Source of the DNA: a virus
Reading direction: 5' to 3' (one strand)
Length of the DNA stretch: 64,000 nt
Virus record (IMG/VR): IMGVR_UViG_3300035698_020096
Location: 1-64,000 of that record
Position numbers and translations under genes: made by a program
In this document: positions 2,760 through 45,001 of the stretch, one piece after another
Layout: every line of letters starts with the position of its first letter
Numbering within the stretch: position 1 is the first letter of the stretch
The notes under the pieces: model-generated
Seen by the model: the letters and a program-made list of their open reading frames with translations, nothing else
What the model was told of the DNA's origin: nothing
Database searches by the model: none

Positions 2760-2879
2760 TGGATTCTCCTGATTTACTGATGAACTTAATTAGATGAAAA
2801 AAGCGACGCCACTAAAACATATTGGTTATATTAGATATTAGGTCCAGCCCTAATATCAAAACATATAATTAAATTCATT

Positions 2880-3590
2880 ATGTTCACTCCTAAAATAAAA
2901 GCATTTGTAATTGAAGATAGATTAAAAGGAAATATTCCTTCACCTTCTGAAGTTAATTATTTCTCTAGTACTGAGACTGAGGATAAATGTGCTCGATGTA
3001 TATTCTTTAGTTCTCATACATCCCAATGCTCCCTATTAGAAATGGAGGTGTTACCCGAAGCCACTTGTGATGTATTCCTAGAGACTAATAAACATGATGC
3101 TGTTACCTGGATAAAAGACAATCTAAGTCATACTATTAATCCAGATAATGGATTCCCTATTCTCACGGCTTTATATGGCAGCGATGACTTTGGGCGGGAA
3201 GATGTAGATGCCAGTAAAGAAGAAGAAGAAGAAGAAATGGGTATAACTCCATTTGAGTATGCCTTCTCTGACGATGTTAGTTATCATATTCCCATTTGTA
3301 GATTAAGTCAAGAAGAGAAAGAAAGGTTTAGTCTTACAGTGGAAACTTTAATAGGAGTGCATATTCCTTTACCTCAATTAGTAATAGACGAGAAGGAATC
3401 TAAACAATTAGAAACCGTATATGTAAAAGAAGATGTAGTATTTACACCTATTCCCAAAGATTGGAACATTAATATAAAAGAGTTTAAATATTCTTTACTT
3501 AAAGGAGATAAACTACACTTATCTCAATCACCAGACGGTAATTATCCTACTATAGCCTGGGAACTAAAGGAAGAAGTTAAATCCAGTTAA
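2880..3590 (+). CDS. hypothetical protein with N-terminal HiPIP-like 4-Cys motif
   Basis: VNY...CARCIFF...CSLL...TCDVF, followed by an acidic middle region. Confidence 0.7.
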   Translation: MFTPKIKAFVIEDRLKGNIPSPSEVNYFSSTETEDKCARCIFFSSHTSQCSLLEMEVLPEATCDVFLETNKHDAVTWIKDNLSHTINPDNGFPILTALYGSDDFGREDVDASKEEEEEEMGITPFEYAFSDDVSYHIPICRLSQEEKERFSLTVETLIGVHIPLPQLVIDEKESKQLETVYVKEDVVFTPIPKDWNINIKEFKYSLLKGDKLHLSQSPDGNYPTIAWELKEEVKSS

Positions 3591-4614: not shown

Positions 4615-4789
4615 CAAAATAGTAATTAATGGTAAGTTTGTATGTCAACTAGGTAGTAAGACTTATGCTGGTTCAGTACTATCAGTAAATAATAAAGTAT
4701 GGGCAAATAATAAACCTATGGCTACTGCTCCTGGTAAATGTAGTGAAGGTATATCTTTATTTGGAGACCCAAAGGTAATATTAGGATGA
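4520..4789 (+). CDS. PAAR-like spike-tip protein
   Basis: 89 aa with three-fold repeats (KIVINGKFVCQLG / KVWANNKPMATAPG / GDPKVILG) and Cys/His residues. Confidence 0.7.
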   Translation: MAIPKMVLCIGHRVLRLIPPPPTPGVALTGCNKIVINGKFVCQLGSKTYAGSVLSVNNKVWANNKPMATAPGKCSEGISLFGDPKVILG

Positions 4790-7938: not shown

Positions 7939-10900
7939 TTAAGTAATCATCAATTCATAATTACCTTCAGATGTAACCTGTAGGTCGAGTTGGTCAATAG
8001 CCATCCACTCAGTATCTACAGCTAAGTGAAATAACTCTGCATCTAAAGGAGATATATCCTCTGCATATACAGCTTCTCCTTGTTCATTAAATACATCTGG
8101 AGATGACTCTCTTTCAGCACTTATAGATTGGTCTCTAGCCCTACTATTATTGAGTGCATCTAGAGCTTGGTCGATAACGGCAAAGTCATTTACTCTACCT
8201 GTATCATGCATCCCGGCTACTAAATGGCCAGTAAGACCTTCCATCATCATACCTAGAACCCCGGATAAGATAGCTCCTGATACAGTAAGAGCAGTACCTT
8301 TAGTGCCTACATAGCTATCACTATCAATAGCTCCTTTAGTACTACCAAGCATATACATTAGTTTATCTTCTTTAGATAGTTTACCTATCTTAGTCTTTTC
8401 AAATAGTTCTCTTTGTCCTTTCATCATATGACTCATATAGAAGAAGGAGTTAGTTACCCCTTTTTCAATAGCTGGAGCGAGAACCATTGCCCCCAAGGCA
8501 AACCCTAACTCACGACCCGCAGATATAGCCATTGCCTTACTAAGGTCTCCTTCTGATTCTTGTAAAGCTAAGTTTAACTTAAAGCTACTACCTATACCTT
8601 TAATACCTGCTGATATTGCACCTTTAGCTATCCCCCCTTTCTTAGTACCTTCCAGATTAGAAGGGAGACCAATTCTCTGAGACAGCATAGAGGAAAGAAT
8701 GCTTCCCTTAGACATAGAAGCTGCTATTAAGCTACTACCTACTACATCTCCTAATGCTTCTCTATCTAGTCTTCCACCTAAAACAGCACTACCTATTAGA
8801 GTAAGTGCAGCAGGTATAATAAAGTCCTGAATACCACTTAGTTTATTTGCATTAGATTCAGCTTTTAAGACATTCATATAATCAAAGCCAGGATTAGCAT
8901 TTATCTCTTGAGGCATTCGATTATTATTTACCTTTCTCCTTTCCTTCTGAGACATAAACATGAACTCATCCATAGCTGATTCATACTTACCCTGAAGCTG
9001 ACTAGTATAGGAGTTTACTCTTTCATTAGCTACTCTATTTATCTGTTCCTTATTAGCTTTATTATTTATATCAAGTCCTTGTAAAGCTAACTCATCCCTA
9101 GCTTTAACTCTTTCTTGTTCTATTAAAGTCTTTCTATTAACTATACCTTCAACAAATATAGAACCATTAAGATAAGACTCTACATCAGCTTGAGGGCCGT
9201 ATAGTTTATTCATCATTTCAACAAGAGCCTTACCTTTAGCCACAGTAGCTGTAGTTTCTAACTTATCAGTGATATATTTAGTTAGATTCTTCTTAACTCT
9301 ATCTGAACCTTCGCCTACCTCTACTTCTATATCTTTACCCTCAGATATGATTCTATGAATCATAAGTCTCATATTCTCTTCTTCTTTCTGGTCTACATTT
9401 CTACCTCCTTTAGTAGCAAAGGACATCTGTCTGTTATCTCCTTCCCCTGTAACTATTACTCCACTAAGTAAGGAAGGAAGAAGACCTTCTATATGGTCAG
9501 CACCACTTTGATACATACTGGATAGAACTTCACTGCTACCAAAGGCTTCCCATATAACAGGAATAGCATGAGAACTTAGTTTATTACTACCAGCTAAATT
9601 CATTAGACTAGTCCATATATCAGCTCCCATACCAGGATTAATCTCTCTTTCAGACCTTCCTCCTATTACCGATACAGCTTCTTGCCTAGCTCCTTCTAAA
9701 CTAGTAAAGCGTTGGAATCCTTCACCAGCTAATCCCATCATGCCTCTAGTAGCTTGAGTAGTATTCTCTATAATCTCTACCATAGATAGAGCCTCCATAG
9801 TCATGTCAGGTCTTCTTCCATCTCTTATATCTTTACTAGATATATCCAGATAGTTTCGTTTAATATCTTCTCTATCCTTACCAAACATCTGTTCCAATAT
9901 ATATAAATTCCTACTACCCTCAGCAGTTCTCTCGCTGAACTTACTATCTATATAGGTTTGTAGATTAGCTTTTTCATCTAGAGCTGGATTATATATACCT
10001 TGTTGCTCCATTAATCCAAGGGTTCCCTTCTTAACATTAGTCATGAAACCTAATTGAGAGCCTTTCTCATACTCCTCAGCCCCAGTATCAGTATTATATC
10101 TATAAGCAATAATGAGAGTTTCTAAACTCCTTTGAGTTTTAAGTGCAGCTACATCAAAGGCTGAAACTCTATCCTTACTATAGTTTTTTAATAGTTCTGT
10201 ACTTAATCTATCAAACTCATCTCCACCCATTCCAAATTTAGTTCTGAGGATAGATTCAGTATCACCGAATTGATCATTACCCCAAGGAGATATTAATTCT
10301 CCACTATTATCCATTCGTACTTCGTTATTAAGTCCGGGTTTTCTAAGACTTTCTCTTTGACCTATTAAGTCAGATAGTTCCATAAAGGCTGACATACCTA
10401 CATTAGAACCAGAAGGACCGAACATAGAAGCCTTTTCTCTAACTAATGCTTGTTGAGCTAATGGGTCACTACTGAGACTTTCATATTCGACAGCAAAGTT
10501 CTTCATATCATCCAACATACCGGAACCACCTTTAGGTTTAATGCCATCCCGTAGTAGCTGATTAACGCTCTTAATAAAGGATAGGATACCCTCACTTTGT
10601 TGACTAGATTTATCTAATTCAGAATAGAAAGTATCTTCAGTCATATGTACATCCACACCTCCTTTAATAACCCCTTCTTTAGGTTTATCAAAGAAGCCCC
10701 CTTGTCTAAGAACTTCTCTAGTTCCGTCATCCTTTAATACATGATTAAGAGCCAGTAAGGGACTATCGGAATAAAGGGTTCCAATGAAAGTATTATAAGT
10801 TTTACCTAGGACTATACCTCCTGCTTCTCCCATTACCTTAACCATAGAGTCATAAGCATTAAGGGTCATATTAGCCCCTGCACCTTGAGCTAGTACTCCT

Positions 10901-13900
10901 TGGAGTCCAGGTAATCCTCTATATCTAGCGTAGAAGGACGAACTAGCATGAGCCATTACTACTTCTCTATCCAGTTCTTCTTGACCCTTACCTTGCTCAT
11001 TCAAAGGTATTAAGTAACTATTAAGACTCTCCTTAACTGTATCTAGAACAGTTCGTCTAGCTTCCTGGTCTACCATTAGTAAGCTCATATAAGTAGACTC
11101 ATTCTTTCTATCCCTATCATTTCTAACAATAGATTCAAGACTAGCTACGAGGGTTTGGTCTAGTTTATTAACATTACTTTGATTACTAAGAAGTTCAAAT
11201 AGAGAAGTATTATGTCCAGCTATATCTAAGTTCTCATTAAATATATTATTGAGTACAGACTTAATACTATTAGTGCCATCTATAACCCCTTCCATGCCAC
11301 CGAATAAATCTCTACCGAAATATATCTCGGTGAATATAAGGTCTAAGCTAGGACTAGTCTTTTGAAAGCCTCCTTCTTCTTTACTCATTAAGAACTCTTT
11401 ACGAATCCCTAAGAAGTTAGCTACTTCTTTCTTAGTAGCACGAGTAAAGTCACTACTATTAAGATTCTCTTTCCATATATCTAATCTAGAATTATTATCT
11501 ACTATCTTACTTCTTTCTTGTTCTATATCAGACCTTAACTTAATTATCTTATCTGTAGCTTTAGCTACTAAATCAGGCTCAGAAGTATTACCAATAGTTT
11601 TCTCTAATCTATCTAAATCTCTTTCCTTTTTACGGATTAAGATATTAGACTTTTCTATATCTCTTTGAGCTGACATGAACTGACTAAATATAGTAGTATA
11701 TTGGTCACCATCAAAGTCACCTAAGTTCATAGTTAAGAAACTAATAGGCGCTACTAAAGATAACCCTTTATTCCTTACAGAGTTCTCAAATGAAGCTTTA
11801 TTACCTTGAAGGTTTTGAGAGTATTGATTGAGCAATCCTATATCTTGAATTAACCCTACAGTCATCCTTTGTTGTTCGGTACCACCTACGGGAGGAGACC
11901 TAAAACTTAATGCTTCTAAACTATCTGTTATATCTAAAGTATTCATTGATACTTCAAGAAGACTAATAGCTCTATTAAATCCCTTTTTACCCTCAAGACT
12001 AAATGCTCCAGCTTTCTCCACTTCTTCCTTACTAGTACCTAATAAAGAATAAGCATTAGCTGAAGTCTTCTTACCTATTAATTTATCAATAGCCTCTACA
12101 TCTGAACTACTTATAGATTTAGATGTAACTCCCGATTGAAGAGTATCTATAACTTTTATTAAACTCTTTATATCTTGTCTATTAGAATCTGTTATACCTT
12201 TATGTTCTTCAGATATTTTAAAGGTATTAGTATCTCTGCTTTCTAGTTCGGTTACTACCTTAGTAAACCCCCCACTCATTTCTCCTAGAACAAAAGAGAA
12301 CATATCTCTTCTATCTCCATCAGAAGATAAGCCCTTTAAATAATCATTATCAAAACTAAAGGCTTTTACTCTACCTTTGTAGGACCCTTCCATTAAACCT
12401 TTATTAGCTATGGTCTTATCTAAGGTTTTATCTAAGGTTTCATTAATAGTAGAAGTTTGATAAGCTTTTATAGCTTGGTTAGCCTCTTCTTCTGTAGCAT
12501 AAGTAAATGAGCTGAATTTAGATTTATATTTAATTTCACTTGAAGGGCCCTCTAGTTTCAAATCGTATTCTTTAATACTATTTTTAAGAACTCCTACTCG
12601 TTGATTTAATAATTTCTTATATTCAAGTAAATCTTTCCCTTCTATATTTTTACTAATAGCTTCTTTAACAAATGAATCAAGATTAGCATCACTAATCACA
12701 CCTTTAAATTCTTGTCTTAATATCTCATAATTAGCTTCTTCAGCTTTATTAAAATCAGATAAAAGAATGGTTCCTACTTTACTAGGTATTAGTTCTTGCT
12801 TAGTTATTTCTTTAATATAAGCTAGTAACTTATCATCACTGACCACACCCCTGAAGTAATTCTTTAGTTTATTAAGATTGTATTCATTCAGGTCCGTATA
12901 TTCTTTAAGGAGAAGAGTTGCTATATCTGTTGGTAATTTATCTACCGAACCCAATTTCTTCTGTTTATCAGCTAACTCTTTAATGTTATCCGTAATAATT
13001 CTTAAGCTTTCCACATACCCTTGCCTTTCCTCCTGATTCAGGCCTACCCCACCCTTAGAGGATTTAAGTCTAGTAGCAATATCCTTCCTTTCATTTTGAC
13101 GAATATCCATCTGTTCTCTAAAAGTTAACCGTTGATTAAAAGCAGTAAACCTTTCTTCTATAGCAGTAACAGTAGTCCCTGATAAACTAGGTAATTCTCC
13201 TCTAACAATTCTGGAGAACTCTTCGATATCAATAGGACCCCTTGTAACCATATAGTCTTCGGTAATAGATAAAAGACTTCTTATATTCTCTCTTTCCTTA
13301 GATAAGCTAGAGAAGCCATCTTTTATCTTACTAAAAGCACCTGTACCTAATGCTGTATCTATAGCCCTTCTTTCTTCAGGGGTTAATGAGACCTTACTGC
13401 CACTAAGAAATAATCTCCCCTCTAAACCTTTCCTTTGCTGCTGAAGAAAGTTTAGTTCATTATTTAAATTCAGTCTACTATACACCTCCTCATTTAATCT
13501 AGCTTTAGCTTTAGGGCTTAAACTAGGTAATTCCTCATCAATAATAGTTGCTAGGACAGAAGCTCCCTTTCCATCTTCTATAGCTATTTTTACTAGTTCA
13601 GTAATATCATTTATCTTACTTTTTTCTAAAGATAAACTATTTACACGAGCTAGAATATCTTCATATAAACCGCTTTTAATTATGGATGTAACTGCTTTTC
13701 TAGTGTTAGATATAGCCTCTATACTTTCAAAGGCTGTAGTTCTTGTCTTATTTAAATAATCTATATAACCTTTTGAAAGAAGTATAATTTCTTTAGCTTC
13801 TACATTTTTAGCAATATCGCCTAAAGCTATATCAATCTTTACTATTTCTAATAAAGCTAATTGTTTACCAAAGTTATCCCCCGAGGTATCAGCTACACCA

Positions 13901-16900
13901 ATATTATCAATAGCACTTTGTAATCTATTACTTATATCCTTAGCTTTATCTTTATCCCCTTGTATATTTAAGTCAAGAGATTGAAACTCTCGTTTATATT
14001 TACCAACTAGGTTTAGTAAGTCCCCTCCTACTTGAGATAAGCCTGACTCGGTGGCTCTAATGGCTGATTGATATACCGCCTTTTCTTTGTTATATAAAGG
14101 AGAACTCTCATCTAGATTAGTCATTCCCACTCTTAGCTCAGAACTAATCTCTTCTCTTATAGGAGATATGCCGGTGTACCGTCTAATAGCTTCTTGAGCT
14201 AATACCATGTGCCCCGCAGGTACCATCCAACTAGCAGCAGGACTAGATACAGCCCCAGGGTATTTAGTTTTATGAGCCATCATTCCCTGTATTCTAGTAC
14301 CAGTAGAAGCTTCAGCCATAGTCCTAATGACCCCTGTTTCCCCAATAGCTACTCCATAGAATTGTCTAAGGGCTAGGACTTCTTCTTTATTCAAATCTAT
14401 ATCACTATCTCCACTAAGTTGAGCTCTAGTCATCTTCTCTCTTACTTGACTCATTAGAGTACCTGGAGTAAAAGCAGAAGCTAGAGCTAAGTTCTTAGCT
14501 ACTAATTCATCAACAAAGGAACCATAGGAATCCCCAATAGCTTTAAGTTCTTCTCCACCCATTAAGTAGCTATATCTTCTATCGTTAAAATCTAATTGAA
14601 TTTTCATACTCCCTTCAGCACTTTCATTAGATAACTGGTAAATCATAGGGAGAGAGAAGCTGAATCCTTTATATTTCAAGTTATCTAATACTGGAGCTAC
14701 TGAACCCATACCAAAAGGTTTATTAGGATCCATTTGATATTCTCTACCTATAGCCATCAATCTTTCATCTGATACCTTATCTATAAGTCCAGGTATATCT
14801 TGTATCTCAGTAGATAAACCCAACCCCCCTTCGGCTTGAGGCTTATAAGCTATCCCAAATATCTTTCTAATCCTATCTCCTTTAGAATCGGTAACACTCA
14901 CTTCCCCAGTAAAGGGGTCCCTATACAATTCTCCATAATTAGGACTAGCTATTAATAAATCATGAACAGTTCTTAGACTATCCATTCGTTGGTCTTTGTC
15001 AACGGCTACAGCTAATACATTTAAATGGGCTTCTATTACTTGCCTAGATAGTTCTCCATAGATACTATAGTCCTTCTCTATTTGAGTAAGCTGTTCCTTA
15101 TTAATAGCGGAATAGCCTGCATATAACCCTACAAACTTACTCTTATCTAATTGAGAGGCTAGACGTATATCGGTAAAATCATATATCTTTCTATCAGTAA
15201 ACCCTCGCTTAGCTAAGTCCATCTCTAAGCCCGTCATAGTACTACCTTCGGATACTACTGACATCATATTAGCTACTACCTTTCTAAGAGAAGCAATAGA
15301 GCCTGTTTCTTCAAAGCTAGTGACAATAGTAGCCATTGGTTTCATTAGGTGTTGAAACTCAAGAGAACCTGAATGTTTACTACCGAGGGATTCTTTAGAT
15401 TGAGAAGCCATTGGACCTATAAACATTCGGAGTACTGTTGACTTATGAGTATAACCTCTAACAATAGCTCTAGTTATTTCGAGATAATCAAGAGCTTCTT
15501 GCTCTTCTTGATTAAGATTATCCAAGGCTAACTTCTTCTCTCTTAAATCTCTAGCCATTTGAATCTTATCTAAATCAGCATCTCCCATAATAAAAGCTAG
15601 TTGCTGAATGATACGGTCGTTACTATAATCAATCTCAGTGGGTACTTCTATTCCTGCTGTTTGTGCTTTCAATTGTTCAACTAAATCAATAGATGCAGCT
15701 ATTAAAGTAGCCTCTCTTTCCCTTGAATCATCTATTCTAATAAAGTCTCTCTTAGTAACTCCTACTGAACCTTTATCTCCAATAGACTCTAGCAATCTAG
15801 TTCTAATAAATCCCTTCATATAATCCATATCTTCTTGATAACCTTTAAGAGCCCCAAGAACTTTAGTATCATCCAGTAGTTGAAGACTAGGGGTTTGTTG
15901 AGCATTAAATAAATCAGTAGACTCCTTAAAGACTGCTTCTCCAAATACTCTACCCAATTCAGTTCTTAACTCAAGAGTATCTATATATATATCAGAAGTA
16001 CTATCTAGTATTTGACTTAACTTACTTAAGTCTTGCTTAACTCCCAATCGTTCTAAATGTCCCCTTATCTCTTCATTCTTAGATACACCTGTAAGTACTG
16101 CACCTAACGCTTGATTCCTAAACCATTCTCCTAACTCTCCTTTCATTGCTGATTCAAATAGCTGAGTCTTTATCTGACTCCCTATTCCTTTATCACTAAT
16201 CCATGAATCTTCAAATCCCATCATTAGAGAAGCTATTAGTCCCTTACCTGTAATACCTCCCTGTTGCGTTTCTAAACTACCTATAAGGGGTTCAAGGTAC
16301 TTCTTATTACGAATAATAGTAGAACCATGAGAATAGAAATAGCTCTTGAGGTTAGAAGGACTGAATAAACCAAAGACTTGACCTACATCTATATCCCCAG
16401 TAGCCCCTGCTTTATTCCTATTTAATTGTTCAGTTACATAAGAGAAGAAGTCTGTCTTACTTCCTGGTACTTGATATAGCTCCTCTAGACCAGTAAATTT
16501 AAGTACAGCTTTAGGTAGTCCTCCAGTACCTTCAACTCTCTTACCTCCACCTACCATAATGGAACGTAAATATACCATTTCCCATAACAACTGGTTATTA
16601 TCAGCATTACCCATCAGTTGTTTAGAATCAAGTACATACTCGACACTATTCTCTGAGGCTCTATACCAGGCCTGTCTATCTAGTTTAGATACGTTAGGTA
16701 AATCATTAATAGTTCTAAAGTTATCGATAACTTCTGTGAGTGCCCCTACTTGGTCTCTAGAGTCAACTACTGATTTAGTAACATAATTACCTTCAGTATC
16801 TGAATAGGTATAGTATCTATCAAAACTATCTCCAAGAGTAGCCCTTACTAGCTCTAACTTAGCTTCTCCTGTAAGCTTATCCATACTTACTATTTCTTTA

Positions 16901-19900
16901 GGAATACCTCCCCCTTGCTTCATCATTTCCTCAGCAGAACCCCAAACTAATACTCTATTAGTATCAGAGTCAAAGGTAACTATATCTCCTCTATTTGCTA
17001 ACATTACCCCTTTATGGCTCCATTCCTCTGATAGTTTAGAAGACTTCTGTCTCTTCTCACTCTTATCTATAAAGCCACTCATAGTACCCATACGTCCTAT
17101 TACCTCAGCTTGAGACACCTTATCTAATCTCTTCCAGTCATAGCCTACAGACCTTAATTTAGATTTAACGAATTCTCTATCATCTGTACTAGAACCATAT
17201 AAAGGATTAGCCCAAGCGTAGTCACTATAGTCCCCAGTGAGTTGAACTAAAACTATAGGGTCAAATCCTTCCTTATTACCAGTAAAACCTTTAATACCCC
17301 CAGCCATAGAGTCAGCTAATTTAGCTCTAGTTAAAAGTAGCTTTCTAGCTATAGAAGTAGACCCTGGTAGAAACTCATTATCTAAGAATCCAAATTCATC
17401 CTTAAGTTCTTTCTTAGCTTCCTCAATTAGATTAGCTATTTCGCTATTAACAACTGTTCTAAAGCCTGCATCACTAACTACCGCTGTATTTAAATCAGTA
17501 CCTACAGTCGTCTCCACCCTACTCCACATAGTTCTAAGACTACCCATTAATTCTTCACTGTTTACAGATAGTCTTTCTAAGGAAGCCCTTTCAACTACTT
17601 TCTCAATAACTCTAGAAGGATTGTACATCCCTAGATTACTAGTACCCACTACATCCCTAAGTATTTCTACAGCTCGTTTAATTCCCCATGATTCCTTCTT
17701 AGCTAATTGAGACATTAGGTCTACTTTAATACCTGTAACTCTTTCATTAATTAGACCTGATACATCTCCTTTAGTAGTAAGACGATAAGATAGTTCTCTA
17801 TCTAACTCAAACATAGGTCTACCTCCCAGAACATTCTTTAAACGTTGAGGTATCTGTGAAGCTTTCTTTGCTACATTAAACGTATAGTTTATTGACTCAT
17901 TTACAGTCTCATCTTTAAATGGAGTAGCATCTATTAAATCTTTAAAGTCTTTATTTAATCCATTAGGTAAAGCTTCCCCAGATTGGATTCTATCTACTAG
18001 TTCATCCGTATTAGCTATACCCAACGTTCTTAAAGATGACGAATATTTATCATACAGCAGTTCACTTATATAAGTAACATATTGGTCTCTAGTGTTTATA
18101 TAACCCACCCCTGCAAATGAGGCCAGTTGCACTGAGCTTACATCTCCAGTAGGAGTTTTATTAATACCATACACACTAAGTCCAGTAGTTTCTTGACTAG
18201 CTGATATACCACTACCGTCTGCTACTCCTCTAATAGCCCCTTCAGTTCCCTTACCTGTAGTATTAGCAGGACCAAAGATATAAGATTGAGCTAGAGCATA
18301 TCTATAAAAAGCTTCACCTTTATTCAATTTATCTATAAATATTTGTTGATTATTATTAATACCGTATAAGGGATTTTTAAACCATGCTTGAGATGTTCCA
18401 TAGGTAGAAGCTCCAGATTGAGTAATAAAGGGTTCTAACATCCCGGCCTTTACTTCTTTAATATCTGACTTTAATTTAGTGGCATATAGAAAGTCTTTTC
18501 TACTCTCTAATATCCCTAATGCAATATCGGATTGGAAGGTACTTACACTTTCCAATCCCATGTATCTATCGAAGGTTTCTCTAATAGCGCCTACAGCATC
18601 TTTCTTAAGTGACTCAAGAGCCGATCTTCTTTCGCGACTAACTTTAGGGTCAGTTATCTCTCTATTAACATCTCTAATTAACTCAAGATGACTTAGTACT
18701 GAACGTCTAAGAGCTAAGTCAGTATCTCCATATATTTGCTCCTTAGTAAGCCCTCTATTAGCTAATCCTTCCCCTTTAGCTAACTTATCATATATACCCC
18801 CTCCAGTAAGTTCAAGAGCTCTTTTAGAAGTACCACTTACCCTCTCTCCTAAATGTTTAGTAGTAAAAGTGGATATAAGTTTAGATATTTCATAATCACT
18901 TAATGAATTATCTAATAGGAAAGTACCAGCACTTGAATCAGTACCTCCTGAAGCTATATGACCTCTAGATAGATATTCTAGGTAGCCTAATCCAGCAGTA
19001 GCTAATCTAGTAGTTTGAGCATCGTACTGGCTTTCCTTTAGAGCTTTCATATAAGCCATCGGCTCAGCTACTAAAGTTCTATAAGTAGTCTCTGCTGCTA
19101 ATGTACTAACTACATTTATTAACGAATCTACTGGACTTAATCTCAAAGCTTCTTTAGATTTAACTACTCGGGGGTTTAATTCATACTCCCCAGTTTCATC
19201 ATTACGAACAAAGGAACCTTCTCCATAAGGTATTCCCCCTATATCTGTGTCAGTATTATTAACAAAGAGAGAGTTACCTATTACTTTATTCTGGTCAATC
19301 AAATATACAAAGCCCTGATTAGTTCCCATCCCTCCTTTTAAACTAGTTAGTCTAAACTTAATAGGATTAAATCCAACATTAGTATCTTGGAATCCTCTAT
19401 ATCCAACCATATCCGCTGGATTAATAGTGAGTTCCAACGCTAGTAAACTTCCTCCTTGTCCATATATATTCTTAACTCCCAGTCCCCCTGTATCTAAACC
19501 CATATCCTTATTTAATTGTTTAACTCTAGCTGTTATTTCAGCTATACCCAGAGCATTAACTTTATTCTCCCAACTAGCTCTAGTTCCTTCAAGAGAAGTG
19601 TCAACATTACCTACAGTAGTTTGAGTCAATCTTCTCCATTCTCTTTCTCTATCCGTACCTTGCTGAGCATAGAAGTTCTCCAAATCTGCACCTAAATTCT
19701 CCTCTTCATTTCTATATAAGATTCCTTTAGATTTAGCATGCTCTCTCATCTCTCTAGCTAAGGCAATAACTCCTACTTCAGAACTAACAGCTTCCTTATC
19801 ATCTCGACTAAATGCCATTGATTCAGAACCAAAGTTAGAGCTTCCAGTAATACTAGCTATATGTCTATATGTATCTTCTCCAAGACCCATACCAGTTCTT

Positions 19901-22308
19901 TCAATAGCAAATACATTTTTAACGTGAGACATAGTTTCAGTAACACCGATAATGTTACCTCTAGTCATAGCAAGTAATTGCTTAACTGTTCTATCTGCTG
20001 CCTTACTAGCTACTGCTTTAGATTTAAACTTAGACCCTAAACCTAAACTATATTTCTCTTCTATGTTGCTAAGACTATCTCTAGAATTAACCCCGGTTTC
20101 ATCTAGTCCTAATACTTTGAGTAAACTATTTCTATTACCATGCTTACTAGTGAGTTCTTGAAGACTGCTATTATATTCGGTCTCCATTCTCAGAGAACCA
20201 ATCCTCCTATAATCTTCATTAGTAAAGTCAGATAAAGAGGGTCTTCCTTCTGTCCATCCTTTAGGTTTATATCTTCCATTTCCACTATCTACAGCAGCTT
20301 TACCTAATAGGTAATGAACCCTTTCTGTCATAGGCTCTAAGACTTTATCCCTATAGTTCCTAATATCAACAGAGATATAAGCTTGATTATTAATTAGTAA
20401 ATCAAATAGATTCTCTTGTATTTCATTTCTATATATAGACCTTCTATTTGATTCTCTTTTACCTGTTAGTTCATTAAGAGAAGTTTGCCGACTATTATCA
20501 GGTCCAAACTCCCCTCCAAAGTCTCCTCCCTTACCGTAGTACAAGTCATTGTCATATTGAAGTAACCATACTTGGTTTAGGTTCATATAGACTTCTACTC
20601 TTTTATCTGAACCCATCCCCCTCTTACCCTGAGCATAAGAAAGTATAGACCGTAAACCCTGACCTATGTCCCCCGCTAGTCCTACTTGGCCCCCAGTAAA
20701 AGCTTCACCCCCTGTTGCTCTTCTAATCCCTCCAATAGCTAATCCTCTAGTTTGGAGGAATAGATGAGTATCAACATATTCCTTAGCTTTTTCTTCCTCT
20801 ATAGAATCACTCTTTTTAGATAAACCTTTAGATTCAAGAGTACCTACATCTCTCATACTCATATAATCTCTAAGGTCAGCTCCAGTATCTCTATAGTTTT
20901 TATTTATAAGTCTTATCTTCTCAGTAATAGAAGCAGTACTATCAAATCCACTGGATACAGGGTTTAATATACTTCTCATTCGATTATGAAAGATAACTAT
21001 TTCTTCATAGTTAGACCCTGCTTGCACTACTGAGTTACCTACTGGGGAAGTTAAGTTAAACGAACCCAACATTGCATATCTTTCAGTGGTATATGCCTTA
21101 GGGTGATACATGCCTTCTGACATCATCTCCAAGGTAAAAGAGGGAAGAAGTTTAGCTATCTTACTATTTATATCTAAAGCCCTTTCTTCACTAGATATAG
21201 CAATCTTATTAGAAGCTGTAGCGCTTGCCTCTAAATCAAACTCTTTATCTAATATCTTCTTTTGAAGAATATATAGTCTTTCCATAACCACTATATTAGG
21301 CCCTAGAATCTGGTGTCCTACCATATTTCTTCTATCCCCTTCAGTAGGGCCAGCTAGTCTTAATTGAAACTTAAACTCACCTCTAGCTATACGCCCACTT
21401 TCCCTTTCTAATTTCTTAACTAGTACATCAGCTACCGCTTTATTCTGCAGTTGAAATAAATCAATAGTTAATTCTTTCTCAGCACTTTCAATAAAGGCTA
21501 CAGCTGAACGTATACCTGGTTTAGCTACATAATCTGTCTCTGTAAGTATCTGATTAGATACTTCTCTAACCCTCTCAGTTATATCGGTAAACTTCCCATA
21601 TTGTCTATTAAGATTAGAAGACTCTCTACTTCTTATTAATTCTTGATGATATTCAGATACACGTCTAGTAGCTCCTACTTCTTCGGTAACTAATACATTA
21701 TTCATTAACCAATTACCTGAAGCTATAGTTACTCTATCTCCACCCCATTGGTGTGAGTTATACCATCCCATTGGTTTAGTAACATATAACCCTCCATATA
21801 AAGATTTATTCCCTACTTGAGTCACATCATGTTTAAATAGATGTTGGTATGTTCCGGAAGAAACATAGCCTTCCCATTCTTCTCTTCTTCTATCCTGTTC
21901 TTTACTACTGAGAGTATCATCAAAGAAGCCTTTATCTAATCCAATATTAAAGTTACCTATAACTCTATTTATAACCTTAGTACCACTTAAGGTCAAGTCA
22001 AACACATCCTGAGAGAAAGAAGAAAATGCGTTCCTACCTAAAGCTCTAAGGACTTCAGTCTGAGGGTCTATATTACCTGTACTAACTGATTCAGTAGATA
22101 GCTTCTTCTGCCAACCCTTTCTATTTACTTCTCTCTTTTCACTAGTTAAACCTCTATATGAGCTTTGATATCCAACAATTAAATTACCAGATTCGTATGT
22201 ATCTGTTCTTTCTTTATTCCATGAAAGATGGAAGTTAACCGCACCTCTAAGAGCATCATCAACCCCCATATTTCTAAATGCTGAATCATAATTCTGTATC
22301 AATGCCAT
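7939..22308 (-). CDS. giant (4,789 aa) putative virion protein: two PLD-like nuclease domains, single-chain double-psi-beta-barrel RNA polymerase, hydrophobic C-terminus
   Basis: PLD-type motifs: HPK...GSFNL...NYE (H402) and HVK...GSSNF...SE (H795). Polymerase-type motifs: GGGKRVEGTGGLPK (K1923/K1933), FRSPP (R3470), GDFDGD (D3531-D3535), LGKTYN and DGIK. No Cys found. Confidence 0.85.
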   Translation of the reverse strand: MALIQNYDSAFRNMGVDDALRGAVNFHLSWNKERTDTYESGNLIVGYQSSYRGLTSEKREVNRKGWQKKLSTESVSTGNIDPQTEVLRALGRNAFSSFSQDVFDLTLSGTKVINRVIGNFNIGLDKGFFDDTLSSKEQDRRREEWEGYVSSGTYQHLFKHDVTQVGNKSLYGGLYVTKPMGWYNSHQWGGDRVTIASGNWLMNNVLVTEEVGATRRVSEYHQELIRSRESSNLNRQYGKFTDITERVREVSNQILTETDYVAKPGIRSAVAFIESAEKELTIDLFQLQNKAVADVLVKKLERESGRIARGEFKFQLRLAGPTEGDRRNMVGHQILGPNIVVMERLYILQKKILDKEFDLEASATASNKIAISSEERALDINSKIAKLLPSFTLEMMSEGMYHPKAYTTERYAMLGSFNLTSPVGNSVVQAGSNYEEIVIFHNRMRSILNPVSSGFDSTASITEKIRLINKNYRDTGADLRDYMSMRDVGTLESKGLSKKSDSIEEEKAKEYVDTHLFLQTRGLAIGGIRRATGGEAFTGGQVGLAGDIGQGLRSILSYAQGKRGMGSDKRVEVYMNLNQVWLLQYDNDLYYGKGGDFGGEFGPDNSRQTSLNELTGKRESNRRSIYRNEIQENLFDLLINNQAYISVDIRNYRDKVLEPMTERVHYLLGKAAVDSGNGRYKPKGWTEGRPSLSDFTNEDYRRIGSLRMETEYNSSLQELTSKHGNRNSLLKVLGLDETGVNSRDSLSNIEEKYSLGLGSKFKSKAVASKAADRTVKQLLAMTRGNIIGVTETMSHVKNVFAIERTGMGLGEDTYRHIASITGSSNFGSESMAFSRDDKEAVSSEVGVIALAREMREHAKSKGILYRNEEENLGADLENFYAQQGTDREREWRRLTQTTVGNVDTSLEGTRASWENKVNALGIAEITARVKQLNKDMGLDTGGLGVKNIYGQGGSLLALELTINPADMVGYRGFQDTNVGFNPIKFRLTSLKGGMGTNQGFVYLIDQNKVIGNSLFVNNTDTDIGGIPYGEGSFVRNDETGEYELNPRVVKSKEALRLSPVDSLINVVSTLAAETTYRTLVAEPMAYMKALKESQYDAQTTRLATAGLGYLEYLSRGHIASGGTDSSAGTFLLDNSLSDYEISKLISTFTTKHLGERVSGTSKRALELTGGGIYDKLAKGEGLANRGLTKEQIYGDTDLALRRSVLSHLELIRDVNREITDPKVSRERRSALESLKKDAVGAIRETFDRYMGLESVSTFQSDIALGILESRKDFLYATKLKSDIKEVKAGMLEPFITQSGASTYGTSQAWFKNPLYGINNNQQIFIDKLNKGEAFYRYALAQSYIFGPANTTGKGTEGAIRGVADGSGISASQETTGLSVYGINKTPTGDVSSVQLASFAGVGYINTRDQYVTYISELLYDKYSSSLRTLGIANTDELVDRIQSGEALPNGLNKDFKDLIDATPFKDETVNESINYTFNVAKKASQIPQRLKNVLGGRPMFELDRELSYRLTTKGDVSGLINERVTGIKVDLMSQLAKKESWGIKRAVEILRDVVGTSNLGMYNPSRVIEKVVERASLERLSVNSEELMGSLRTMWSRVETTVGTDLNTAVVSDAGFRTVVNSEIANLIEEAKKELKDEFGFLDNEFLPGSTSIARKLLLTRAKLADSMAGGIKGFTGNKEGFDPIVLVQLTGDYSDYAWANPLYGSSTDDREFVKSKLRSVGYDWKRLDKVSQAEVIGRMGTMSGFIDKSEKRQKSSKLSEEWSHKGVMLANRGDIVTFDSDTNRVLVWGSAEEMMKQGGGIPKEIVSMDKLTGEAKLELVRATLGDSFDRYYTYSDTEGNYVTKSVVDSRDQVGALTEVIDNFRTINDLPNVSKLDRQAWYRASENSVEYVLDSKQLMGNADNNQLLWEMVYLRSIMVGGGKRVEGTGGLPKAVLKFTGLEELYQVPGSKTDFFSYVTEQLNRNKAGATGDIDVGQVFGLFSPSNLKSYFYSHGSTIIRNKKYLEPLIGSLETQQGGITGKGLIASLMMGFEDSWISDKGIGSQIKTQLFESAMKGELGEWFRNQALGAVLTGVSKNEEIRGHLERLGVKQDLSKLSQILDSTSDIYIDTLELRTELGRVFGEAVFKESTDLFNAQQTPSLQLLDDTKVLGALKGYQEDMDYMKGFIRTRLLESIGDKGSVGVTKRDFIRIDDSREREATLIAASIDLVEQLKAQTAGIEVPTEIDYSNDRIIQQLAFIMGDADLDKIQMARDLREKKLALDNLNQEEQEALDYLEITRAIVRGYTHKSTVLRMFIGPMASQSKESLGSKHSGSLEFQHLMKPMATIVTSFEETGSIASLRKVVANMMSVVSEGSTMTGLEMDLAKRGFTDRKIYDFTDIRLASQLDKSKFVGLYAGYSAINKEQLTQIEKDYSIYGELSRQVIEAHLNVLAVAVDKDQRMDSLRTVHDLLIASPNYGELYRDPFTGEVSVTDSKGDRIRKIFGIAYKPQAEGGLGLSTEIQDIPGLIDKVSDERLMAIGREYQMDPNKPFGMGSVAPVLDNLKYKGFSFSLPMIYQLSNESAEGSMKIQLDFNDRRYSYLMGGEELKAIGDSYGSFVDELVAKNLALASAFTPGTLMSQVREKMTRAQLSGDSDIDLNKEEVLALRQFYGVAIGETGVIRTMAEASTGTRIQGMMAHKTKYPGAVSSPAASWMVPAGHMVLAQEAIRRYTGISPIREEISSELRVGMTNLDESSPLYNKEKAVYQSAIRATESGLSQVGGDLLNLVGKYKREFQSLDLNIQGDKDKAKDISNRLQSAIDNIGVADTSGDNFGKQLALLEIVKIDIALGDIAKNVEAKEIILLSKGYIDYLNKTRTTAFESIEAISNTRKAVTSIIKSGLYEDILARVNSLSLEKSKINDITELVKIAIEDGKGASVLATIIDEELPSLSPKAKARLNEEVYSRLNLNNELNFLQQQRKGLEGRLFLSGSKVSLTPEERRAIDTALGTGAFSKIKDGFSSLSKERENIRSLLSITEDYMVTRGPIDIEEFSRIVRGELPSLSGTTVTAIEERFTAFNQRLTFREQMDIRQNERKDIATRLKSSKGGVGLNQEERQGYVESLRIITDNIKELADKQKKLGSVDKLPTDIATLLLKEYTDLNEYNLNKLKNYFRGVVSDDKLLAYIKEITKQELIPSKVGTILLSDFNKAEEANYEILRQEFKGVISDANLDSFVKEAISKNIEGKDLLEYKKLLNQRVGVLKNSIKEYDLKLEGPSSEIKYKSKFSSFTYATEEEANQAIKAYQTSTINETLDKTLDKTIANKGLMEGSYKGRVKAFSFDNDYLKGLSSDGDRRDMFSFVLGEMSGGFTKVVTELESRDTNTFKISEEHKGITDSNRQDIKSLIKVIDTLQSGVTSKSISSSDVEAIDKLIGKKTSANAYSLLGTSKEEVEKAGAFSLEGKKGFNRAISLLEVSMNTLDITDSLEALSFRSPPVGGTEQQRMTVGLIQDIGLLNQYSQNLQGNKASFENSVRNKGLSLVAPISFLTMNLGDFDGDQYTTIFSQFMSAQRDIEKSNILIRKKERDLDRLEKTIGNTSEPDLVAKATDKIIKLRSDIEQERSKIVDNNSRLDIWKENLNSSDFTRATKKEVANFLGIRKEFLMSKEEGGFQKTSPSLDLIFTEIYFGRDLFGGMEGVIDGTNSIKSVLNNIFNENLDIAGHNTSLFELLSNQSNVNKLDQTLVASLESIVRNDRDRKNESTYMSLLMVDQEARRTVLDTVKESLNSYLIPLNEQGKGQEELDREVVMAHASSSFYARYRGLPGLQGVLAQGAGANMTLNAYDSMVKVMGEAGGIVLGKTYNTFIGTLYSDSPLLALNHVLKDDGTREVLRQGGFFDKPKEGVIKGGVDVHMTEDTFYSELDKSSQQSEGILSFIKSVNQLLRDGIKPKGGSGMLDDMKNFAVEYESLSSDPLAQQALVREKASMFGPSGSNVGMSAFMELSDLIGQRESLRKPGLNNEVRMDNSGELISPWGNDQFGDTESILRTKFGMGGDEFDRLSTELLKNYSKDRVSAFDVAALKTQRSLETLIIAYRYNTDTGAEEYEKGSQLGFMTNVKKGTLGLMEQQGIYNPALDEKANLQTYIDSKFSERTAEGSRNLYILEQMFGKDREDIKRNYLDISSKDIRDGRRPDMTMEALSMVEIIENTTQATRGMMGLAGEGFQRFTSLEGARQEAVSVIGGRSEREINPGMGADIWTSLMNLAGSNKLSSHAIPVIWEAFGSSEVLSSMYQSGADHIEGLLPSLLSGVIVTGEGDNRQMSFATKGGRNVDQKEEENMRLMIHRIISEGKDIEVEVGEGSDRVKKNLTKYITDKLETTATVAKGKALVEMMNKLYGPQADVESYLNGSIFVEGIVNRKTLIEQERVKARDELALQGLDINNKANKEQINRVANERVNSYTSQLQGKYESAMDEFMFMSQKERRKVNNNRMPQEINANPGFDYMNVLKAESNANKLSGIQDFIIPAALTLIGSAVLGGRLDREALGDVVGSSLIAASMSKGSILSSMLSQRIGLPSNLEGTKKGGIAKGAISAGIKGIGSSFKLNLALQESEGDLSKAMAISAGRELGFALGAMVLAPAIEKGVTNSFFYMSHMMKGQRELFEKTKIGKLSKEDKLMYMLGSTKGAIDSDSYVGTKGTALTVSGAILSGVLGMMMEGLTGHLVAGMHDTGRVNDFAVIDQALDALNNSRARDQSISAERESSPDVFNEQGEAVYAEDISPLDAELFHLAVDTEWMAIDQLDLQVTSEGNYELMIT

Positions 22309-34600: not shown

Positions 34601-37600
34601 ATGTCAGCACCCCGTATTAACTTTCAAGAATTAAATGAGGGCTATTCCCCTATTCGTCCAAATGTGAATAATAGGATTGGAATATTAGCTCCTTTCTCTA
34701 AAGGCCCAGCTAATCAATTAACGTTTATATCTGGATATTCTGATTTCTCTGACCGATATGGTTCAGATAACTCAATAGGTTCTACTGCATTTCAAGCAGC
34801 ATGGGACCAGAAAGCTACTGAGTTTGGATTACTTCGAGTGTTAGGTAGAGCTAGACCTGCATCAGGTCGAATTAACTTTGGAGGTTATACCAGTAAACCT
34901 AATAGTCTAGTTCTTCTAATGAGCTTTATAGGAGAAGCTCTACCGCAATCAGATAGAATCCTCACCTCAAGCATTTTCACTAGTGGTAACTTTAGTAGCA
35001 CTACTACAGGCCGCTTCTGGTTCTTAGTAGATAGTATCGATGATGATGGTTTCATTAAACTTAAATACATCTTTATTCCTCAAGGTATTGAAAACTATAT
35101 AAACTGGTATCCAGAATATAGAGAACCTCAGGATTTAACTATAGACCCTACATTTCCATTAAATGGTATTGGTAATAATCTACTTAATGAAACCTCCGAT
35201 ATCTCTAGTATTAGCTCTTCAATTTTAAAGATTGAAGGAGCTGAACCTATGACCTTCGTTGATGGGTGTTTAGGTTTAGGTGGAACGGGAGAAGTATGTA
35301 CTCTAGGTATGGTTGAAGGTTGGAAGGTAACTATCGAAGCTGGACAGATGAGATGGGTATGGCATGTAGACAATTCTGGTACTAACTATCGTTTAAATCA
35401 ACCAGAGTCAGGTTATATAGGAACTCTACCTGTTATTATCCCTGGAACAGAGGGTAATTCTAGTTTCAATACAGCTATTGATAGTGCAGTACTTACTGAT
35501 ACTAGAAGTGGAGAAATGGTTTCCTTCGAAGGAGTACATGCTTCTAATCCTAGGAGTGGCGCTATTAACCCTTCAGTAATGCCTGTATATGACTATGTAA
35601 TTCTACATAAGACTGATAAAGGTATTCCTGTCACTATTGATAAAGGAGTATTTCTTAGCTTTGGTACTATGTCTCAAGTAGATGATATTAGTCTTCAACC
35701 AGGAGATATGTGGACAGTTAAGGTAGCTCACTTTGATTATGAGATTCCCTTATATGTAGATGCTTCCCCTAATCAAGTAGTAACTAGCATTATCGAGAAG
35801 ATTCAGGGAGTTAATCCTATTGGTATGGTAGAGCGCAATCAAGCGGATAATGGTATTATTTTCTCTCTTGATGAAAACTCTCTTACTGGTTCAGTAGGTA
35901 ATAACTTTAGCTATCATGTTGAGTTAACTGAACCAGATGGGGAAGTAGTAACTGAAGGTAACTTTTATAGTGGTGAAAGATATATACAGGTTCCTATTAG
36001 ATATGCTACTTACATTCAAGAAGGAGCTGAATTAAGAATCATTGATACTCCTGGTATATATGGAGTAGTTAATATATCTAATCCCTTTGACCCCGCATCT
36101 CCTACTCAATCACCTAATAAATCTCTTCTTCCTACCATCACTAGAGTTTTAAGAGTAGAAGCTCCTATTACTGGAGGAGGTCTAGCTACTATTTGGTTGG
36201 ATAAAGATGTAGTAGCTGACTTTGATTCTATAGCTATCTTTCACTTCATGAATCCAACTGGATTAAACATGACCCATTATACTTACTACCAAGCTAACTT
36301 TTTGCAAGGTGGTGAAGATGGGCCTAGAAGAGCTGAAAGGGATTTCTATAGTCTAGATGGTATTCCTCTACTTAAACTAGTAGCTACTAGTGAAGGAGCT
36401 TGGGCTAATAACTTAAAGTTAAGCGTTTATCCTATTGATAATAAACGAATTCAGGTTAGTATTACTGATTTGAATAAGGATAATTACAACCCCCCGATTA
36501 GAGACGAAATTCATATATTCTCTTTTGAAGATACTGATGAGCAAGGTTTTATAACTAGACTTAACCCTTCTAACTTTATAAGGGGAATCTTTCTGCCTAA
36601 GTATGCTAACCCTAACTATAACGTTGGGATGTTGCGTAAGAGCCCTATGCGTCTAGCTCCTCCGGATAATACAGTAGTAGACTCAGAGGATGCAGCACAT
36701 CCAGAGAACTTTGGACCTCGTATTCTTAAAGACTTTACCTTAGAAGGAGGTTACGATGGCCCTCCTATTCAAGATGAAGATTATATTAAAGCTCTGGACC
36801 AAGTAAGGAATCAACCTGTACATATCCTTATTGCCCCAGGCCAATACAGGTCTACCGTAGTTAAGTCTAGACTATTAGCCCAAGCTGAGAATGCTAATGA
36901 ACTAGAAGGATTACGAATAACCTTAATTAATGCAAGACCTGGATTAACCCCCGAAGCAGCTATGGCTGAAACTATTGGATTTGATTCGGATAAAGGAGTA
37001 ATGGTGGCTGGATGGTCTACATATGCCGGTAAGCAAGGAGCCCCTAGATTTGGACTATCCCCTGATACTCTACTTGCTGGTAAACTATCTGGTATTCCTT
37101 TCCATGTAAGCCCTGCTGCTCGTACTACTAGTGGTCCTATCTTTGGTATTGCTGAAGTAGATACTCAACCCTATACCTCTAGAGCTCAATTAAACCTTTA
37201 TCACAATGCACGATTAGAAGCAGTACATATTGACCCTGCTACTAACTCCTTTAACTTCCTTAATGGGAGAAGCTTAAGTTCTAATCAACAATGGGACCGT
37301 ATTAGCTTCAGACGTACCTTTAACGTTGTAAGGATGGATGTAGCTCAGAACTTACAGCAATATAAGAGTGAACCTAATACCGCTGCTCTAAGAACTCGTA
37401 TAGCTAGTTCTATTGATGCCTACTTAAGCACCTTAAAGCGTAACGGAAGTATTAGTGCATTTCAAGGTGCTGAAGTTGCTAGTCCTAATCCTGCCTCGGG
37501 TCTAGCAACTATTAGATTCGGATTAGCACCAGTATATGCTTTAGATTACATAGATGTGTATCTAATTCGTACTGATGATGGAACCATTACTAGACCAGAT

Positions 37601-37603
37601 TAA
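34601..37603 (+). CDS. contractile tail sheath protein (1,000 aa, with insertions)
   Basis: N-terminal PRINFQE...GILAPFSKGP...FSDRYG; EGAWANNLK; LEGGYDG; C-terminal ISFRRTF...KSEPNT...APVYALDYI. Confidence 0.9.
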   Translation: MSAPRINFQELNEGYSPIRPNVNNRIGILAPFSKGPANQLTFISGYSDFSDRYGSDNSIGSTAFQAAWDQKATEFGLLRVLGRARPASGRINFGGYTSKPNSLVLLMSFIGEALPQSDRILTSSIFTSGNFSSTTTGRFWFLVDSIDDDGFIKLKYIFIPQGIENYINWYPEYREPQDLTIDPTFPLNGIGNNLLNETSDISSISSSILKIEGAEPMTFVDGCLGLGGTGEVCTLGMVEGWKVTIEAGQMRWVWHVDNSGTNYRLNQPESGYIGTLPVIIPGTEGNSSFNTAIDSAVLTDTRSGEMVSFEGVHASNPRSGAINPSVMPVYDYVILHKTDKGIPVTIDKGVFLSFGTMSQVDDISLQPGDMWTVKVAHFDYEIPLYVDASPNQVVTSIIEKIQGVNPIGMVERNQADNGIIFSLDENSLTGSVGNNFSYHVELTEPDGEVVTEGNFYSGERYIQVPIRYATYIQEGAELRIIDTPGIYGVVNISNPFDPASPTQSPNKSLLPTITRVLRVEAPITGGGLATIWLDKDVVADFDSIAIFHFMNPTGLNMTHYTYYQANFLQGGEDGPRRAERDFYSLDGIPLLKLVATSEGAWANNLKLSVYPIDNKRIQVSITDLNKDNYNPPIRDEIHIFSFEDTDEQGFITRLNPSNFIRGIFLPKYANPNYNVGMLRKSPMRLAPPDNTVVDSEDAAHPENFGPRILKDFTLEGGYDGPPIQDEDYIKALDQVRNQPVHILIAPGQYRSTVVKSRLLAQAENANELEGLRITLINARPGLTPEAAMAETIGFDSDKGVMVAGWSTYAGKQGAPRFGLSPDTLLAGKLSGIPFHVSPAARTTSGPIFGIAEVDTQPYTSRAQLNLYHNARLEAVHIDPATNSFNFLNGRSLSSNQQWDRISFRRTFNVVRMDVAQNLQQYKSEPNTAALRTRIASSIDAYLSTLKRNGSISAFQGAEVASPNPASGLATIRFGLAPVYALDYIDVYLIRTDDGTITRPD

Positions 37604-37629
37604 TAAGCCCTTAAATATTCAATAAGTTT

Positions 37630-38418: not shown

Positions 38419-38449
38419 TATTTCCAATACAATTTTATATCAATACATT

Positions 38450-38471
38450 AGGGAGGTCTATGCCTCCCTTT
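38450..38471 (+). terminator. intrinsic terminator
   Basis: AGGGAGG-TCTATG-CCTCCCT-TT after the tube gene. Confidence 0.7.
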
Positions 38472-38499
38472 GTTATATGTTCCCTACTAATATGTTATT

Positions 38500-38784
38500 A
38501 TGCTTAAACCTTCCTTATTTAATTTATTAAATAAACCTATATCCAGGAGAAAGGTTCATACGATACATATTAATGGCAATAGACTAGGATTCTTTAGAAG
38601 TACTTCTTACTCTCAGCAAACATTAACTATATATGGTGTAATAACTAATTCTAACTTTCCTTTTAATAAAACATTTGAACTTTACTTTAATACACAAGAA
38701 GGAACTTATAGAGTAGATAATGGGAACTACCCCTACCCTAAAGGGATAAGGGTTTTACGCACAATTTATAAACATGATACTTAG
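38500..38784 (+). CDS. hypothetical protein
   Basis: 94-aa ORF. Confidence 0.55.
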   Translation: MLKPSLFNLLNKPISRRKVHTIHINGNRLGFFRSTSYSQQTLTIYGVITNSNFPFNKTFELYFNTQEGTYRVDNGNYPYPKGIRVLRTIYKHDT

Positions 38785-38867
38785 AATGGAACTACAAGTA
38801 AAAGCTTTTCTAAAGTATCCTTCAGAATTAATATAAAAGATATTGTTCCAAGTTCTTATAGTGATAA

Positions 38868-40949: not shown

Positions 40950-41007
40950 TTCAATAGATAACTCGTAAGGTTACTCTAAATATTTAATTAAGGAAAGTTA
41001 TTTATAT

Positions 41008-43074: not shown

Positions 43075-43078
43075 ATAT

Positions 43079-44998: not shown

Positions 44999-45001
44999 AA
45001 T

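Follow-up and report, generated by a model that had tools for sequence, protein, structure and literature searches.

The minus strand of a 64,000-nucleotide stretch of viral DNA (positions 1 to 64,000 of IMG/VR record IMGVR_UViG_3300035698_020096; this whole stretch is referred to as the window) carries a giant open reading frame (ORF; 7939..22308) whose translation, of 4,789 amino acids (aa), lacks cysteine and belongs to the family of gp080 of phage Ma-LMM01 (phrog_31006). Residues ~262–897 of this protein (19618..21525, minus strand) are predicted to form a phospholipase D (PLD)-fold module of two lobes with helical inserts, and its assignment as a single-chain PLD-fold phosphodiesterase with intact catalytic residues is well supported by an AlphaFold2 model and its structural matches. 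On balance, we think it probable that this is a two-lobed enzyme of the HKD type that is probably delivered with the virion, and we lean weakly towards nucleic acid as its substrate.

Two conserved HKD half-sites in a giant phage protein

A first-pass annotation, made from the sequence alone, had placed tandem PLD domains at 19740–21520. Translation of the minus-strand ORF puts this interval at aa 263–856, with the PLD motifs at exactly the residues that had been named; the opening segment FIESAEKELTIDLFQLQNKAVADVL occupies aa 270–294. Half-site 1 (21004..21105, minus strand) consists of H402, K404, (E409), G415-S416-x-N418 and G431-S432-N-x-E435 and, when re-translated, reads HPK...GSFNLT...GSNYE from H402 to E435. 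Half-site 2 (19777..19926, minus strand) consists of H795, K797, a variable hairpin insert, G822-S823-S824-N825 and S842-S843-E844, reading HVK...GSSNFG...SSE from H795 to E844.

Set against the pattern HxK(x)4D(x)6G[ST]xN, both were recognized as copies of the motif. The first, H402-x-K404-x4-E409-x5-G415-S416-x-N418, is one residue shorter than canonical and has E at position 409, where most relatives have D; the second, H795-x-K797...G822-S823-S824-N825, has a variable insert of 15–35 aa between its two parts. E435 and E844 lie 17 and 19 residues past the Asn, respectively, each directly before a hydrophobic strand, and both are invariant; in the endonuclease Nuc, the catalytic His is supported by a conserved Glu that follows GSxN, Glu122. 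The strict pattern HxK...G[ST]xN...E arose 0.0035 times per shuffle of the giant protein, with two or more copies in none of 2,000 shuffles; the double HKD motif is far beyond chance.

A word-indexed search returned 11 giant homologues, and 42 came from an exhaustive HMMER scan over 1.84 billion representatives. Nearly all are 3,200–5,400 aa long, with the PLD module always starting at about residue 160–380, and in the few short ones (P0013, P0047, P0049 and P0050) the match reaches a protein end. An alignment of 43 full-length relatives, 19–70% identical to the query (alignment A2), contained 44 invariant columns in total, nine of which are H402, K404, N418, G431, E435, H795, K797, N825 and E844, while S823 and S824 were at least 90% conserved. 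The conservation of the His and Lys residues on which the first-pass annotation had staked its reading is therefore complete in these relatives, as is that of the N and E of both half-sites. Nine of the 44 invariant columns thus fall in the two half-sites, where the constraint on the giant protein is at its strongest.

The PLD module is as conserved in this alignment as the region around a downstream DFDGD motif (discussed below), and module and DxDGD occur together in every full-length relative (43 of 43). Further loci from IMG/VR and metagenomes were fetched via C-terminal patterns, and so were unbiased with respect to PLD; the module was found in all 30 loci, these among them, that reached the 5′ part of the gene, and the loci without it were cut by contig ends.

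The whole giant protein had a single PHROG match, phrog_31006 (E 7.6e-67), and the only isolated phages with relatives by tblastn were Microcystis phages (Ma-LMM01, MaMV-DC, MaMV-DH01, MaMV-CH and MaMV-DL). Ma-LMM01 gp080 (YP_851094.1; UniProt A0A7J4) is 26–27% identical over aa 254–661 (tblastn); it and its homologues in MaMV-DC, DH01, CH and DL are of the same phrog_31006 family and have both HKD sites and DxDGD. It is shorter (3,562 aa), with a compact PLD module of ~460 aa (aa ~179–670), and lacks an insertion present here at aa 2800–3300. In GenBank gp080 is hypothetical, while its automatic UniProt name is ‘PLD phosphodiesterase domain-containing protein’. Since the tblastn matches to relatives begin at aa ~251–260, conservation of the giant protein starts with the PLD module; the head that precedes it (aa 1–250; 21559-22308, minus strand) is variable and poorly conserved.

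Predicted fold of the PLD module

An AlphaFold2 model of aa 250–900, built from a 21-sequence alignment (A3), had a predicted local distance difference test score (pLDDT) of 73 and a predicted template modelling score (pTM) of 0.78. The top Foldseek matches in the PDB were all members of the PLD superfamily (E ~1e-3, probability 0.97–1.0), and the best viral fold match was the BFVD model of the first chunk of Ma-LMM01 gp080 (E 2.7e-24). In an unbiased structural scan of 48,161 representative chains, independent of Foldseek, the top 25 were all PLD-superfamily or PLD-like-fold (TrmB/TrmBL2) entries, including F13, PLD, PPK1, PssA, PLD4, Nuc, NucT, FAM83, Zucchini, SauUSI, BfiI, NgoAVII, Tdp1 and TrmB-type domains; past these, the score fell to unrelated helical matches at Z ≤ 7.6.

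By VIA, the closest two-domain enzymes were vaccinia F13 (Z 15.3; 273 aligned residues; root mean square deviation (r.m.s.d.) 3.1 Å), a bacterial PLD (7e0m; Z 14.2; 280 residues; 3.4 Å), phosphatidylserine synthase (PssA; Z 13.5; 290 residues; 3.6 Å), the PPK1 C-domains (Z 13.2; 279 residues; 3.5 Å) and PLD3/PLD4 (Z 12.9–13.1; 269–281 residues; 3.2–3.6 Å). Each of these superpositions covers both lobes (model residues 13–650), and two-domain PLD enzymes overall aligned over ~273–305 residues, between model residues 9 and 651, at 3.1–4.8 Å and Z 10–15. The bilobed, pseudo-dimeric fold of F13, PLD3/PLD4 and 7e0m is thus matched by the two lobes of the model (Z 12.9–15.3, 3.1–3.6 Å).

Lobe 1 (aa ~263–449; 20962..21522, minus strand) opens with the helix–strand element FIESAEKELTIDLFQLQN and is matched by Nuc and by the Pfam family PLDc_2. 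It is followed by a variable, mostly helical linker (aa ~450–566; 20611..20961, minus strand), recognized from alignment A3, secondary structure and low-pLDDT segments and shorter in most relatives. Lobe 2 (aa ~567–897; 19618..20610, minus strand), which NucT matches, has a helical insertion at aa ~650–780; its conserved elements are the strand LNQVWLLQ and the motifs GE[FM]G and VDxRNYR. Nuc, from Salmonella plasmid pKM101, and NucT, from Helicobacter pylori, each match a single lobe (Z 10.4–11.0, ~131–135 aa, 2.5–2.9 Å, 13–18% identity): lobe 1 superposes on Nuc (1byr) with Z 11.0 over 131 aa at an r.m.s.d. of 2.5 Å (model residues 12–282), and lobe 2 on NucT (6ehi) with Z 10.5 over 135 aa (model residues 290–648). 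The layout of H, K, GSxN[FL]T and a Glu-containing motif before a hydrophobic strand is shared with both enzymes. As single-HKD homodimeric endonucleases, however, these build their site from two identical chains, whereas here two diverged lobes lie in one chain.

In the model, superposed on two-domain PLD enzymes, the two halves form one bilobed PLD fold and hence one predicted active site, as the first-pass annotation had proposed. Joint superposition on two-domain PLD enzymes requires the canonical pseudo-dimer packing, and on this ground the two HKD motifs are assumed to lie opposite one another. Each lobe would then contribute a His, a Lys, a Ser/Asn pair and a putative His-supporting Glu (H402/K404/N418/E435 and H795/K797/N825/E844) to a single site, the lobes packing as they do in two-domain PLD enzymes. 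In the chemistry of the PLD family, one His attacks the phosphodiester, giving a phospho-histidine intermediate, and the other protonates the leaving group. From the model, the module appears to be a complete, active enzyme that is catalytically intact.

Compared with known single-chain proteins with two HKD motifs, identity is only 11–15%, and here the lobes carry large helical inserts and are embedded in a protein of nearly 4,800 aa that, unlike the comparators, is not a membrane, lysosomal or envelope protein. The first motif of F13 is degenerate, whereas both are intact in the giant protein.

The DFDGD region and probable delivery of the giant protein

The DFDGD motif (aa 3531–3535; 11704..11718, minus strand) would correspond to the loop that binds Mg in RNA polymerases of the two-barrel (double-psi β-barrel) type, and D3531, D3533, G3534 and D3535 are invariant in the 43 homologues. 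Its conserved upstream partner is RSPPxG (R3470–G3475; 11884..11901, minus strand), in which R3470 and G3475 are invariant and P3473 is at least 90% conserved; L-x-L-x-x-P-x9-DFDGD is also conserved in the family. We take RxPP...DFDGD to resemble the RAP...HP...NADFDGD arrangement of the RNA polymerase β′ subunit. A long coiled-coil hairpin is predicted directly after DFDGD within aa 3440–4010 (10279-11991, minus strand), and beyond it lie invariant GKxYN and QxxRDxIKxK motifs.

The first-pass annotation had treated the rest of the protein as a polymerase. The part of that claim that stands is the invariant RxPP...DFDGD motif; a fold or profile match for the region was not obtained. The AlphaFold2 model of aa 3440–4010 was unreliable (pLDDT 58, pTM 0.29, pLDDT <50 around DFDGD), phmmer with aa 3300–4100 gave no matches in the PDB, and a profile of aa 3440–4010 (A4) found there no RNA polymerase, only keratin- or GCN4-type coiled-coil noise. 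A profile of aa 1640–2080 (A5), used as a second-barrel test, had no PDB matches, and no sequence match of the tested regions of the giant protein to the solved crAss RNA polymerase was found among PDB chains.

The nearest precedent for such a protein is gp96 of Thermus phage P23-45, a virion protein of 5,002 aa in which a tape measure is fused to a DFDGD virion RNA polymerase (PMC10770324). Like the giant protein, it is very large and has the exact DFDGD; its C-terminal parts are transmembrane, and it provides a precedent for a tail-delivered polymerase. It differs in that P23-45 is a siphovirus, the RNA polymerase of gp96 is N-terminal and no PLD domain is reported for it (PMC10770324). A profile–profile comparison (hhalign) of the DFDGD region with gp96 residues 327–1124 was not significant. 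The authors of that study saw no RNA polymerase similarity beyond DFDGD in gp96 before its structure was known (PMC10770324), and because of this the missing matches do not refute a polymerase here. From its motifs, we consider it fairly probable that the DFDGD-bearing region is a polymerase. Another large protein that is packaged in the virion and has a DFDxD motif is the RNA polymerase of crAss-like phages (phi14:2 gp66). The MaMV-DH01 genome is stated to lack an RNA polymerase and to rely on host transcription (PMC9927357); the family, including its MaMV and Ma-LMM01 homologues, carries the invariant DxDGD all the same.

The IMG/VR record that contains the window is 80 kb long, with an estimated completeness of ~47%. 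Adjoining the giant gene, and divergent from it, are genes with PHROG matches to a portal, a major head protein, a 1,000-aa tail sheath, a tube, a baseplate-hub lysozyme fusion and a metallopeptidase. The gp080 gene of Ma-LMM01 has the same position beside head and tail genes and is likewise divergent from the portal/major-head/sheath module. The phage itself has a contractile tail and is related to Microcystis phage Ma-LMM01. A crAss-like or N4-like phage is ruled out by the Ma-LMM01-type portal, major head, sheath and baseplate-lysozyme neighbours, together with the restriction of isolated relatives to Microcystis phages; unlike in crAss-like phages, a sheath is present, and the portal, major head and baseplate families are of Ma-LMM01 type.

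PHROGs detected no tape-measure gene in the tail module (34601-45000, plus strand), which holds the sheath, tube, hub-lysozyme and baseplate genes, and the giant protein itself had no tape-measure match in Pfam or PHROG. A language-model (ESM) look-up of aa 3440–4010 pointed to PhageMin_Tail/TMP clusters at 0.86–0.89, a weak lead. The C-terminal region contains hydrophobic, Gly/Ala-rich segments (8242..8835, minus strand; Kyte–Doolittle), with aa 4492–4514 and 4671–4689 scoring highest. By analogy with P23-45 gp96, the giant gene, with these segments, may fill the tape-measure role.

The lack of cysteine extends to the family: among the 44 relatives that exceed 3,000 aa, 43 have none and one has a single Cys. 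This striking bias is consistent with unfolded passage through the tail or periplasm. Since no tape measure was found, the C-terminal segments are hydrophobic, Cys is absent and P23-45 gp96 offers a precedent, delivery of the giant protein through the tail is plausible from its context. As part of a Cys-free giant protein, encoded in the head/tail module of a contractile-tailed phage without a separate tape-measure gene, the enzyme would probably travel in the virion and enter the host together with the DNA.

Several further features were observed in the window and in relatives. A coiled-coil-rich, lineage-specific insertion of ~500 aa (aa ~2800–3300; 12409..13911, minus strand; gap fraction 0.58–0.84 in alignment A2) is missing in most relatives and sits between a conserved middle part and the DFDGD region. 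In one IMG/VR relative (L020:9392-20500), the giant gene is in two ORFs of 1,471 and 2,231 aa; a frameshift, a stop or an assembly error could account for the split. Two plus-strand genes of the window encode, by PHROGs, a baseplate/hub protein fused to an endolysin-type domain (41008-43074) and a protein with metallo-endopeptidase and lysozyme-like matches (45490-46737), so the virion seemingly carries several wall-degrading activities beside the PLD module.

Candidate substrates and meaning for the phage family

The preferred reading of the module is a Nuc/NucT-type nuclease or nickase that would act on host or incoming DNA or RNA, beside a part of the same chain that is possibly an RNA polymerase. 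Nucleic acid as the substrate is close to an even call, with a weak lean in its favour. This lean comes from three sources. The weak sequence-level neighbours (PLD4, the nicking-joining enzyme, DpdK and NucT) are all DNA or RNA enzymes; in structural alignments, the single-lobe nucleases are 16–18% identical to the module compared with 10–15% for two-lobe PLD-fold enzymes, a set made up of lipid enzymes, PPK1 and PLD3/PLD4; and the module is fused to a chain with an invariant DxDGD, a nucleic-acid-type motif. The layout GSFNLT...SNYE also resembles that of Nuc.

The neighbours in question were found with profiles. A PDB search with a profile of the PLD fragment gave only weak matches (E ~0.1), topped by PLD4 and a poxvirus K4-type virion nicking-joining enzyme; K4 is packaged in the virion of a virus that also packages its RNA polymerase. 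Among 21 module sequences, NCBIfam profiles weakly matched DpdK in four (7.5e-5) and NucT in two. Searched as a single sequence, the fragment found no PLD in the PDB, and its RecA matches there were rejected as artefacts of multi-copy fusion chains, individual stretches each having E >50.

A number of points weigh against this reading. On the window’s own sequence, Pfam PLDc_2 (PF13091) scored 22 bits at aa 394–443 (E 1.3e-4), below its cut-off of 27, and the second half of the module had no Pfam match. The second HKD motif is without the conserved acid (Asp) at H+7 and has a variable hairpin insert. An hhalign comparison of lobe 1 with lobe 2 was not significant, aligning 17 columns at HxK, so no internal duplication is detectable at the sequence level. 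The juxtaposition of the two His residues is inferred from the two-lobe superposition of a predicted model. The substrate cannot be read from the fold, as lipid enzymes (F13, PLD and PssA), PPK1 and nucleases occur together, within ~2 Z units, among the top structural neighbours. A polymerase in the partner region is putative and argued from its motif, and the language-model look-up gave weak tape-measure leads instead. Finally, we found in the literature no activity or virion-proteome data for any family member.

Searched individually, 15 of the 21 module sequences matched PLDc_2 at E ≤ 0.01 (best E 4.7e-8), while a PF13091 search of the window’s own 80-kb record, giant gene included, gave no match at that threshold. 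The second half is recognized through its conservation and predicted fold only.

A different and rather less probable reading is that the module is a phospholipase or lipid-headgroup enzyme that, once delivered by the tail, would degrade or remodel the host membrane locally and so help the DNA and the ejection protein to cross it; PLD-family effectors in type VI secretion systems would be an analogue. Contractile machines of that type do deliver PLD lipases, and the fold neighbours include several lipid-acting enzymes: F13, 7e0m and PssA (Z 15.3, 14.2 and 13.5), human PLD1/2 (Z 10–12) and Pseudomonas aeruginosa PldA (7v53; Z 9.9). The hydrophobic C-terminal segments and the tail/ejection context also fit a membrane role, but the module is N-terminal, far from that hydrophobic end. 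Moreover, the Z gap to the nucleases is small, the nearest sequence-level matches are nucleases, no GSANxNxRS lipase-type signature was seen in the module and the spacing after the motif (GSFNLT...SNYE) is Nuc-like.

Still less likely is some other role of the PLD fold: Tdp1-like removal of protein–DNA adducts, nicking-joining or topoisomerase-like action on genome ends, polyphosphate or nucleotide chemistry, or, despite the intact residues, a mainly structural or binding function. In favour, the fold matches include the PPK1 C-domains (Z 13.2) and Tdp1 (Z 7.9–8.1), profiles weakly pick up the poxvirus virion nicking-joining enzyme, and inactive proteins such as FAM83 (Z ~10) use this fold too. 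Tdp1, however, scores far below the HKD enzymes, and the complete, invariant H/K/N/E sets in both lobes favour classical HKD catalysis; neither the PPK1 C-domains nor FAM83 are known to have such complete sets. A chance resemblance without any PLD domain would fit the sub-threshold Pfam score and the unmatched second half, but is effectively refuted by the rarity of the pattern in shuffled sequences, the invariance of its residues in 43 homologues and structural matches of up to Z 15 in a scan of 48,161 chains topped only by PLD-superfamily or PLD-like-fold entries.

The PLD domain is itself of a known kind; the model and the conservation suggest an enzyme that is real, conserved and probably active, set in an architecture not previously described, and our literature search found no paper linking Ma-LMM01-type giant proteins, tape measures or virion RNA polymerases with a PLD domain. 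The fullest version of this picture, which we regard as unlikely, is that Ma-LMM01-like myoviruses, although described as lacking any RNA polymerase, inject one Cys-free giant protein combining a tape-measure or ejection function, a two-barrel virion RNA polymerase and its own PLD nuclease or nickase. If so, the PLD head would nick or process incoming or host DNA as template for the fused polymerase, or shut down the host chromosome, and the whole would be a self-contained, injected starter of gene expression, for which contractile-tailed phages have no described example.

Bloom-forming cyanobacteria are the hosts of the Ma-LMM01 phage group, relatives of which are widespread in aquatic metagenomes. 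The largest gene of these phages carries a hypothetical annotation. A predicted, intact PLD-type phosphodiesterase as its first conserved module, invariant across a family diverging to ~20% identity, gives experiments an enzymatic point of entry to a protein of 3,500–5,400 residues that is otherwise opaque. Were its activity that of a lipase, the module would parallel, in phages, the PLD effectors of type VI secretion. Should delivery with the DNA and a polymerase role of the DxDGD part both hold, virion-borne transcription machinery would extend to a new group of myoviruses, and a new accessory activity would be added to virion transcription machines.

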